Shown: in pieces, positions 19,183 to 20,000 of the stretch
How the letters are laid out: each line of letters opens with the position of its first letter
Position numbering within the stretch: the stretch's first letter is position 1
Notes under the pieces: model-generated
What the model was told of the DNA's origin: nothing
Seen by the model: the letters and a program-made list of their open reading frames with translations, nothing else
Database searches by the model: none
Source: Vicugna vicugna
Taxonomy: Eukaryota
Assembly (NCBI GenBank): GCA_013265495.1
Contig: MU057576.1
Span: 584,919-604,918 of the forward strand
DNA length: 20,000 nucleotides
Reading direction: 5' to 3'
Program-made: the position numbers and the translations under genes

Positions 19183-20000
19183 ACGCAGGAGAGGCAGGCC
19201 CGAGACCCCAGAGTGACCTGAAGCAAGGCGGAAAAGGCTACATCACCTAAAGTTCGGGTACCGCAGGGGGACATCGTGCCTGAATGTCTCACTGAGGCAG
19301 AGGCAACGAAGCTGAGGGCTCCCGAGGAGGAGGAGGAGGAGGAGGAGGTGGTGGACCAAGTGAAGGATGCCGCCTGCAAATCCTACCTAGAACGGCAGGT
19401 GGGGCTAGATCCGCGTCCTCCAGACCCATCTCCTCTCTCCCTGACCCCTGCCTGCTGGACTGAGACCCTCTCTCGCCTCCGCAGTGCATTCCCTACGCAG
19501 TGAACAGGGCACGGCAGACCATACTCCATGTGGTCCAGATGAGATTTGTGCCCCAGGATGAGGGAGAACCCCACCTAGCAGAGGACCCCACGTGGGCGGA
19601 GGACGAGGAACCCTCACCTTGCCCGATTGACACCTGGGCTCGGGGGAGCCGTGCCCGTGCAGTCCGCGCCTTCATAGGCGGAAAGGATGACGAGCCGAGG
19701 CAAAGAAAGCCCCGCCCCAGTCAGTTTTCTTCCCTCTCCCGCCTGGGGTTCCCATCTGAGAGCTGGCTTGCAGCCCCAGCCTCCAGTTCCCTACTTTAAA
19801 CCTAGGCCTACCGTCGCCAGGCTTCAGTTCGAAGCTGACCTTCCACAGTCCTGGCCTCTGCATTCTCGCCACGCACCTGGGGCTCCCCTCTGTGGCCCAT
19901 AGCCCCAGATCCAAACTATGGCCAAGTGCCAAGTGGCCCAGCGGCTGGGAGGGGGAGGTCGAGTTGCTGGGTGAGCTATGGGTGGGCCGCACCCGTGTAC
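19183..20000 (+). pseudogene. C2orf81: Decayed C2orf81-like exons (exon 2 at 19183-19398; exon 3 onward from 19485), continuing past window end
   Basis: Motifs SKAEK..VPQGDIVP..LTEAE, CIPY..DEGE..AEDPTWAEDEEPS and [37 protein letters not shown] match recalled C2orf81; stops at 19219 and 19757, frameshift near 19642-19647, homology spread over three frames. Confidence 0.8.
19324..19347 (+). repeat. (GAG)8 trinucleotide repeat (poly-Glu in the C2orf81-like frame)
   Basis: Eight perfect GAG units read directly. Confidence 0.9.

Follow-up and report, generated by a model that had tools for sequence, protein, structure and literature searches.

A disabled C2orf81 copy beside WDR54 in Vicugna vicugna and a camelid family of shortened copies

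A C2orf81-like gene carrying several disabling lesions lies beside WDR54 in a 20,000-nucleotide stretch of Vicugna vicugna DNA (assembly GCA_013265495.1, contig MU057576.1, positions 584,919 to 604,918, forward strand; hereafter "the window", position 1 being its first letter). The original prediction, made from the sequence alone, offered two explanations: a lineage-specific loss of the gene, or a decayed duplicate with an intact copy elsewhere. Which of these, if either, accounts for the damaged copy? The reading that we prefer, with a probability of about two in three, is that the window holds the dead parent C2orf81 of a duplicate-and-replace history in camelids, and that the function now resides with amplified short daughter copies.

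The locus and its damaged copy

Both neighbors of the copy are free of lesions, as had been predicted. RTKN (835..11938, + strand), which marks the parental locus, has 12 coding exons as far as an N gap; when spliced they give 473 codons with 0 internal stops, and AG/GT is found at each inner junction. WDR54 (12595..15818, − strand) is complete, with 9 coding exons and a product of 332 aa that is identical to alpaca WDR54 (P0376) at 332/332 positions and differs from Camelus WDR54 (P0415) at 3. C2orf81 is arranged head-to-head with WDR54 and beside RTKN, which bears out the claim of a syntenic position; in cattle, PMC5499805 lists WDR54 and C2orf81 as a head-to-head pair 90 bp apart. The promoter region shared by the two genes (16200..16447, unstranded, limits approximate) belongs to the duplicated unit, and dromedary model P0013, on another chromosome, matches window 16255-16537 in this region. 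Because RTKN and WDR54 are intact here and the other WDR54 models of alpaca and camels are partial or frameshifted, the window very likely represents the parental RTKN-WDR54-C2orf81 locus, from a South American camelid.

Several smaller features of the window were observed. Assembly gaps are present at 11939-12313, cutting the last RTKN exon, and at 16938-17882, in C2orf81 intron 1. A near-perfect tandem duplication of ~36 bases lies at 15826-15896, just upstream of the WDR54 start-codon exon. The first coding exon of WDR54 (15735-15745, − strand) is the site of a length difference: the protein has 332 aa in alpaca and camels versus 334 in sheep. Alpaca WDR54-like copies P0257 and P0366 retain the two missing residues, so these duplicates separated before the parent WDR54 lost them.

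Coding exon 1 of C2orf81 (16448..16465, +) encodes MADKGS, with which camelid paralogues also start, and has an intact GT donor; an RNA contig links it, at a loose contig end, to 19183. Exon 2 (19183..19398, +; AG/GT ends checked) corresponds to positions 1-72 of domain DUF4639, and exon 3 (19485..19704, +) to positions 76 to ~150. Intron 2 between them (19399-19484, +; GT..AG) is removed by splicing in RNA run X17. A remnant of exon 4 (19721..20000, +), 71% identical to peccary residues 404-496, continues past the window end. All three translated pieces matched Pfam DUF4639 (PF15479), with E-values of 4.6e-13, 2.2e-19, and 7.5e-36 and scores of 49.4, 70.3, and 124.6 bits (gathering cut-off 27), and covered profile positions 1-72, 76-129, and 397-490 of 580. 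By tblastn, the window showed 50%, 55%, and 71% identity to residues 7-80, 80-135, and 404-496, respectively, of peccary P0034. A processed pseudogene or retrocopy was ruled out, since introns 1 and 2 are present with GT/AG ends.

The predicted lesions are all in place: a premature TGA at 19219-19221 (+; codon 19 of the spliced frame), a +1 frameshift at a run of five G (19642-19646, +), a TAG in the ancestral exon-3 frame (19675-19677, +; a sense codon in paralogues), and a TGA in the exon-4 remnant (19757-19759, +). Both TGAs had been assigned to Arg positions. This is correct for the first, which is opposite Arg in 51/51 homologues matching a simple pattern, but only partly so for the second, where 36 of 47 pattern-matched homologues have Arg and the rest have Cys (8), His (2), or Pro (1). 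CpG decay from CGA to TGA is a plausible origin of both stops, judging from these residues. A third reading frame had been proposed after the TAG; the TGA within it stands, but there is no further frameshift. Instead, a deletion junction is found at 19719..19721 (+), where the greater part of intron 3 is missing along with ~245 codons of exon 4. The copy lacks profile positions 130-396 of 580 and contains nothing that aligns with peccary residues ~156-403. Because the gap between profile positions 129 and 397 amounts to only ~70 bases in the window, and intron 3 is 30 codons long in a bovine-type model that retains it, we place a deletion of ~0.8 kb at 19719/19720, which begins shortly after the start of intron 3 and ends near codon 403.

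Two further differences were found. Where the long predicted helix begins, a run of 8 GAG codons (19324..19347, +) amounts to a net deficit of 5 codons, and the resulting 5-residue gap in exon 2 was seen in both tblastn and alignments. The exon-3 splice donor (19705..19706, +) reads GA, where retained-intron models imply GT: its context is GKESPAP in the window versus GKVSPAP (P0006, P0011) and GEVSPAS (bovine-type P0023), both intron-retaining. The donor is thus probably dead. Spliced from exon 1, the window copy lacks the open frame of ~580-620 codons and stops at codon 19. This stop alone is sufficient to disable the copy, which is a pseudogene.

The lesions were compared with contigs from four of the 24 sequencing runs listed (DNA runs X1, X8, and X12; RNA run X17); contig depth was not used as a measure of copy number or expression level. 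Run evidence supported one of the predicted stops but not the other. A contig of X1, a run that may in principle be related to the assembled animal, showed 0 differences from window 19069-19316, indicating that the first stop is present in that run; contigs of X8 and X12 each differed from the window at 2 places over the same interval. The contigs of the four runs gave no direct confirmation of the stop at 19757. Positions 19219 and 19757 were both absent from the 40 of 263 difference rows listed, a result that carries no evidential weight. At the G run, paralogous contigs carried one G fewer in 4/4 runs. The +1 shifted frame of the window recurs in three Camelus gene models (P0007, P0084, P0085). 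The deletion junction at 19721 is common to the window and an RNA contig; other contigs continue into the missing sequence. In each of the three DNA runs, 2-3 contigs continue at 19721 into undeleted exon-4 DNA, and in X8 one of these is, by listed lengths, the contig nearest to the window (8 differences in 280). The deletion is therefore not in every copy, and some relatives may lack it at this locus.

These data bear on the possibility of an assembly artefact, in which paralogues would have been wrongly joined into a mosaic window gene because the short-read assembly has gaps, and the real parental allele would carry less damage. The two N gaps, one of them within intron 1, would allow for such a mosaic, no contig covers the whole stretch (the best run contains 0.71 of its words), and the nearest 3′ contig in X8 lacks the deletion. 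However, exon 2 and its stop are matched exactly by the X1 contig, the junction recurs in RNA and the shifted frame in models of other species, and the codon-19 stop disables the copy by itself. We consider an artefact highly improbable.

The contigs also showed skipped segments. A 296-base piece of intron 1 (18653-18948) is skipped in contigs of X1, X8, and X17; it is probably an insertion present in only some copies, and as such usable for dating them. Other copies have skips of their own at 19596-19902 (307 bases; X1, X12) and 19671-19719 (49 bases; X8, X12, X17), and the latter ends at the same point as the deletion of the window.

A camelid family of C2orf81 copies

A protein search with exon 3 passed 18 of 20 candidates, all 18 of them camelid (76-97% identity). 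Copies were counted on gene models, of which many are chimeric predictions. By this count, a single dromedary assembly contains 8 domain copies in 7 models, spread over sequences of 57.4, 45.2, 124.7, and 86.7 Mb; four of the models are on one sequence and three on three others. Alpaca C2orf81 models are located on sequences of 61, 47, and 125 Mb. RefSeq already names the camelid copies "C2orf81-like". One model of 266 aa has an open frame in Bactrian camel, dromedary, and alpaca; the two camels differ from each other at 2 positions and the tribes at 13/266. Constraint on this copy appears to be weak, since it differs by 4.9% between tribes versus 0.9% for WDR54.

In alpaca, one WDR54-like model and one C2orf81-like model have adjacent accession numbers. 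In camelid models P0004, P0011, P0013, P0015, P0019, and P0021, pieces of C2orf81 are fused to other genes, namely RTKN exons, ribose-5-phosphate isomerase (RPIA), a homeobox gene, a tyrosine phosphatase, or a short-chain dehydrogenase, and pieces of WDR54 are also co-modelled. The adjacent accessions and the fused models point to segmental duplication of the promoter block. A whale model and one further model likewise run from C2orf81 into short-chain dehydrogenase, which is therefore probably the normal downstream neighbor. Among the annotated models, different copies retain different parts of exon 4.

In RNA run X17 (labelled reproductive system), a contig skips 19394-19481 at GT..AG, so that exon 2 is joined to exon 3; this joint was found in 0/3 DNA runs. 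The spliced contig has an unshifted G run, carries the deletion junction, and shows 21 differences from the window in 238 bases. Because 0/19 X17 records were 99% alike to the window, they represent paralogues or the copies of another species and are not proof that the window copy is transcribed. The contigs of this one RNA run show that at least one camelid C2orf81 paralogue is spliced; the short daughter copies are presumably translated as well.

Plain lineage-specific loss, the first of the two original explanations, is contradicted by these findings, since many camelid C2orf81 copies exist and some are open and transcribed. The window copy has lesions at the orthologous locus, as expected of a unitary pseudogene; such a pseudogene should have no other open copies, and here there are open alpaca models of 152 and 266 aa and a paralogue that is spliced in RNA.

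The second explanation, a dead duplicate beside an intact twin, is probably also wrong, because the copy is head-to-head with a full WDR54 and no full-length camelid C2orf81 protein was found by the exon-3 search, the exon-4-remnant search, or HMMER. Could an intact full-length gene nevertheless survive, for example unannotated just right of the window or missed by the searches, so that the window copy is merely the dead one? The remnant search gave 59 matches among 117 candidates, the best from deer, cattle, whales, and peccary (69-73%). The sole camelid match, P0080, had 43% cover and was internally deleted. The unfiltered HMMER search returned only short camelid-type proteins among the ids inspected, and even the two longest camelid models that cover a single gene (369 and 411 aa) are internally deleted. 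On the other side, the undeleted exon-4 contigs in 3/3 DNA runs, one of them 97% identical to the window, make a longer unannotated copy conceivable; the analyzed stretch ends at 20000, inside exon 4, and the word filters of protein searches can miss relatives. We regard a surviving intact gene as decidedly unlikely. Camelid C2orf81 looks to have been replaced by shortened copies rather than simply lost.

Change in the N-terminal domain

The N core (peccary 33-135) was compared with an ancestral proxy built from 7 of nine other placentals. These nine placentals differed from the proxy at 1-8 of 101-103 N-core sites; the values for gibbon and elephant, used only as tie-breakers for the proxy, were 6 and 7. 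The 266-aa camelid copy was changed at 40/103 sites and the window copy at 48/96, or 39-50% of the camelid N domain. For 36 of the 103 sites, no more than 10% of 12 camelid copies had the ancestral residue. In a 29-row tree, from which ferret was left out because its sequence was short, the 14 camelid rows formed one group with support of 100/100, on a stem branch of 0.56 changes per site.

Conserved columns were scored on 91 diverse homologues (from 100 of 142 new HMMER ids; alignment A2). Sites changed in 4/4 camelid rows tested comprised 1 of 19 highly conserved columns versus 38 of 87 others (p = 0.0012). At 29 of the 39 changed sites, the new residue also occurs in distant homologues, a set that was found with a camelid query. 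Such sparing of conserved columns fits a protein still under selection for its fold during remodelling. Trp at peccary position 44 (A2), kept in 97% of the 91 homologues, is replaced in the four camelid rows tested and in the window, and is a candidate for a lost contact. In the window, the exon-4 remnant was changed at 20/90 sites versus 48/96 for the N core (p = 1e-4); in the 266-aa copy, the C tail was changed at 21/69 versus 40/103 for the N core (p = 0.33). The excess of N-core change over relaxed regions is therefore suggestive only. A search of metagenome contigs for orthologous DNA suitable for dN/dS gave 598 pattern matches, of which 0 were confirmed. A stronger version of the preferred reading, in which camelids replaced a near-invariant central-pair protein by a positively selected, amplified family of short proteins (putatively the N domain, alone or joined to the C tail) and the original then died, is put forward only as a tentative possibility.

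An unconstrained N-domain tree that included distant homologues placed the camelids outside the placentals, which we read as a long-branch effect. The constrained trees were not rejected by an AU test (p = 0.21 for placentals, 0.08 for Cetartiodactyla), a rough test with 8/40 rows dropped as fragmentary or near-duplicate, a fast search, and too few replicates. Origin of the camelid N domain from an ancient paralogue was set aside, because the exon layout, synteny, and exon-4 remnant are cetartiodactyl-like and the constrained trees were not rejected.

The predicted fold of alpaca paralogue P0086 (mean pLDDT 80, pTM 0.40) has helices at 45-55 and 58-104, so that the conserved part would consist of a short helix, a 47-residue helix, and extended motifs. 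The long helix may resemble AKAP-type amphipathic helices, a likeness not used as evidence. Sequence searches for solved relatives gave one chance-level match with alignment A1 (E 0.07) and none with A2, Foldseek with the P0086 model gave 0 matches, and a wide structural search returned only generic long helices (best Z 6.0, none ≥8). A match to a central-apparatus chain (Z 5.8) was tied with unrelated chains and was not taken as evidence. Helices with extended motifs and no informative structural match fit a subunit that may fold on its partners. GFP-tagged mouse C2ORF81, expressed in mouse ependymal cells, was recently located at the central pair of motile cilia in PMC12979858, where the role of the protein is said to need further study. 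Human C2orf81 is confined to motile cilia in oviduct epithelium and termed "largely uncharacterized" in bioRxiv 10.64898/2026.03.14.711768. The ancestral protein is a component of motile cilia. PMC13261958 links rare human C2orf81 variants to stem-cell growth; we gave this link little weight because C2orf81 adjoins WDR54.

A remaining alternative is functional loss: no camelid C2orf81 works, and all copies, including the short open ones, are passengers of segmental duplication that are transcribed only via a strong housekeeping bidirectional promoter. The promoter shared with WDR54, the many frameshifted or chimeric models, the failure to find a full-length camelid protein, and an N domain altered at 39-50% of its sites and missing a conserved Trp would all be expected if this were so. 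Mere passengers should not, however, show stem changes that avoid conserved columns, a 266-codon frame that is open and of equal length in three species, or a strongest RNA contig that retains the exon-3 frame. We therefore consider functional loss unlikely, although less so than survival of an intact gene.

Under the duplicate-and-replace reading, C2orf81 of the camelid ancestor would have been copied repeatedly by segmental duplication, along with the promoter common to it and WDR54, a 5′ portion of the latter gene, and in some cases exons of RTKN. Introns and neighboring gene pieces argue for duplication at the DNA level, mostly along one chromosome and onto at least three others, where copies are seen. 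The N-terminal domain changed at about one-third of its sites before the copies spread, with key residues kept, and the long variable middle of exon 4 decayed by different deletions in different copies, as the annotated models show. Redundancy would then have been followed by the stops, frameshift, and splice defect of the parent copy. The remaining ciliary role would be carried by shortened daughters of ~150-270 aa, whose long N-terminal helix probably binds in the central pair, both of motile cilia and of sperm tails.

Implications and comparison with known systems

A dead copy alone is ordinary; what sets this case apart is that the full-length form has been lost and that a near-invariant domain was remodelled under constraint. 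Camelids apparently manage without full-length C2orf81. As no full-length camelid protein was found, a middle part of ~250-340 residues may be dispensable, and the changes suggest which N-domain positions can vary; if the stronger version of the replacement reading is true, camelids offer a natural experiment on the importance of the individual parts of C2orf81. Should dN/dS bear out selection, the family would become a candidate for sperm or cilia biology specific to camelids. A further lesson is that a screen for gene loss at syntenic loci can mistake a replaced gene for a lost one, and that chimeric models abound in the camelid annotation of the C2orf81 region. In the literature searched we found no paper on camelid C2orf81, which subscription journals, bioRxiv supplements, or gene-loss tables may list; there were 0 mentions of C2orf81 in the main texts of PMC6618069 and PMC6598621 and 0 in the text supplement of PMC7498332.

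The window copy resembles mammalian C2orf81 (peccary P0034, 582 aa; banteng P0031, 606 aa) in its place beside WDR54 and RTKN and in exon layout; identity is 50-55% for exons 2-3 and 71% for the exon-4 remnant. The mammalian orthologues found have 530-650 aa and an N domain identical to that of peccary at 85-98/103 sites; in contrast, the window copy is disabled, lacks ~245 codons, and falls in a camelid-only group. Duplicated (unprocessed) pseudogenes, and relocation of a gene by duplication followed by loss of the parent, are known concepts. The camelid case shares with them the kept introns, several independent lesions, and open copies elsewhere, but here it is the parent that died, and what survives is shortened and remodelled rather than faithfully copied.

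If the stronger version of the replacement reading is true, the copies form a family of core-duplicon type in a group other than primates, with an action on motile cilia or sperm tails. As described in PMC6920530, core duplicons have a shared core with differing flanks, copies generally on one chromosome, dN/dS above 1, copy-number variation among individuals, and broadened expression; PMC7419210 is a further paper on these primate families. The camelid copies appear to resemble the primate families NPIP/morpheus, SPATA31, GOLGA8, and LRRC37, as presented in PMC6920530, in their lineage-specific dispersed expansion, location mostly on one chromosome, varying flanking gene pieces, and fast protein change. 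Unlike the primate core duplicons, the camelid family seems older, being present in both tribes, retains the promoter of its parent, is spread over several chromosomes, and has lost the parent.
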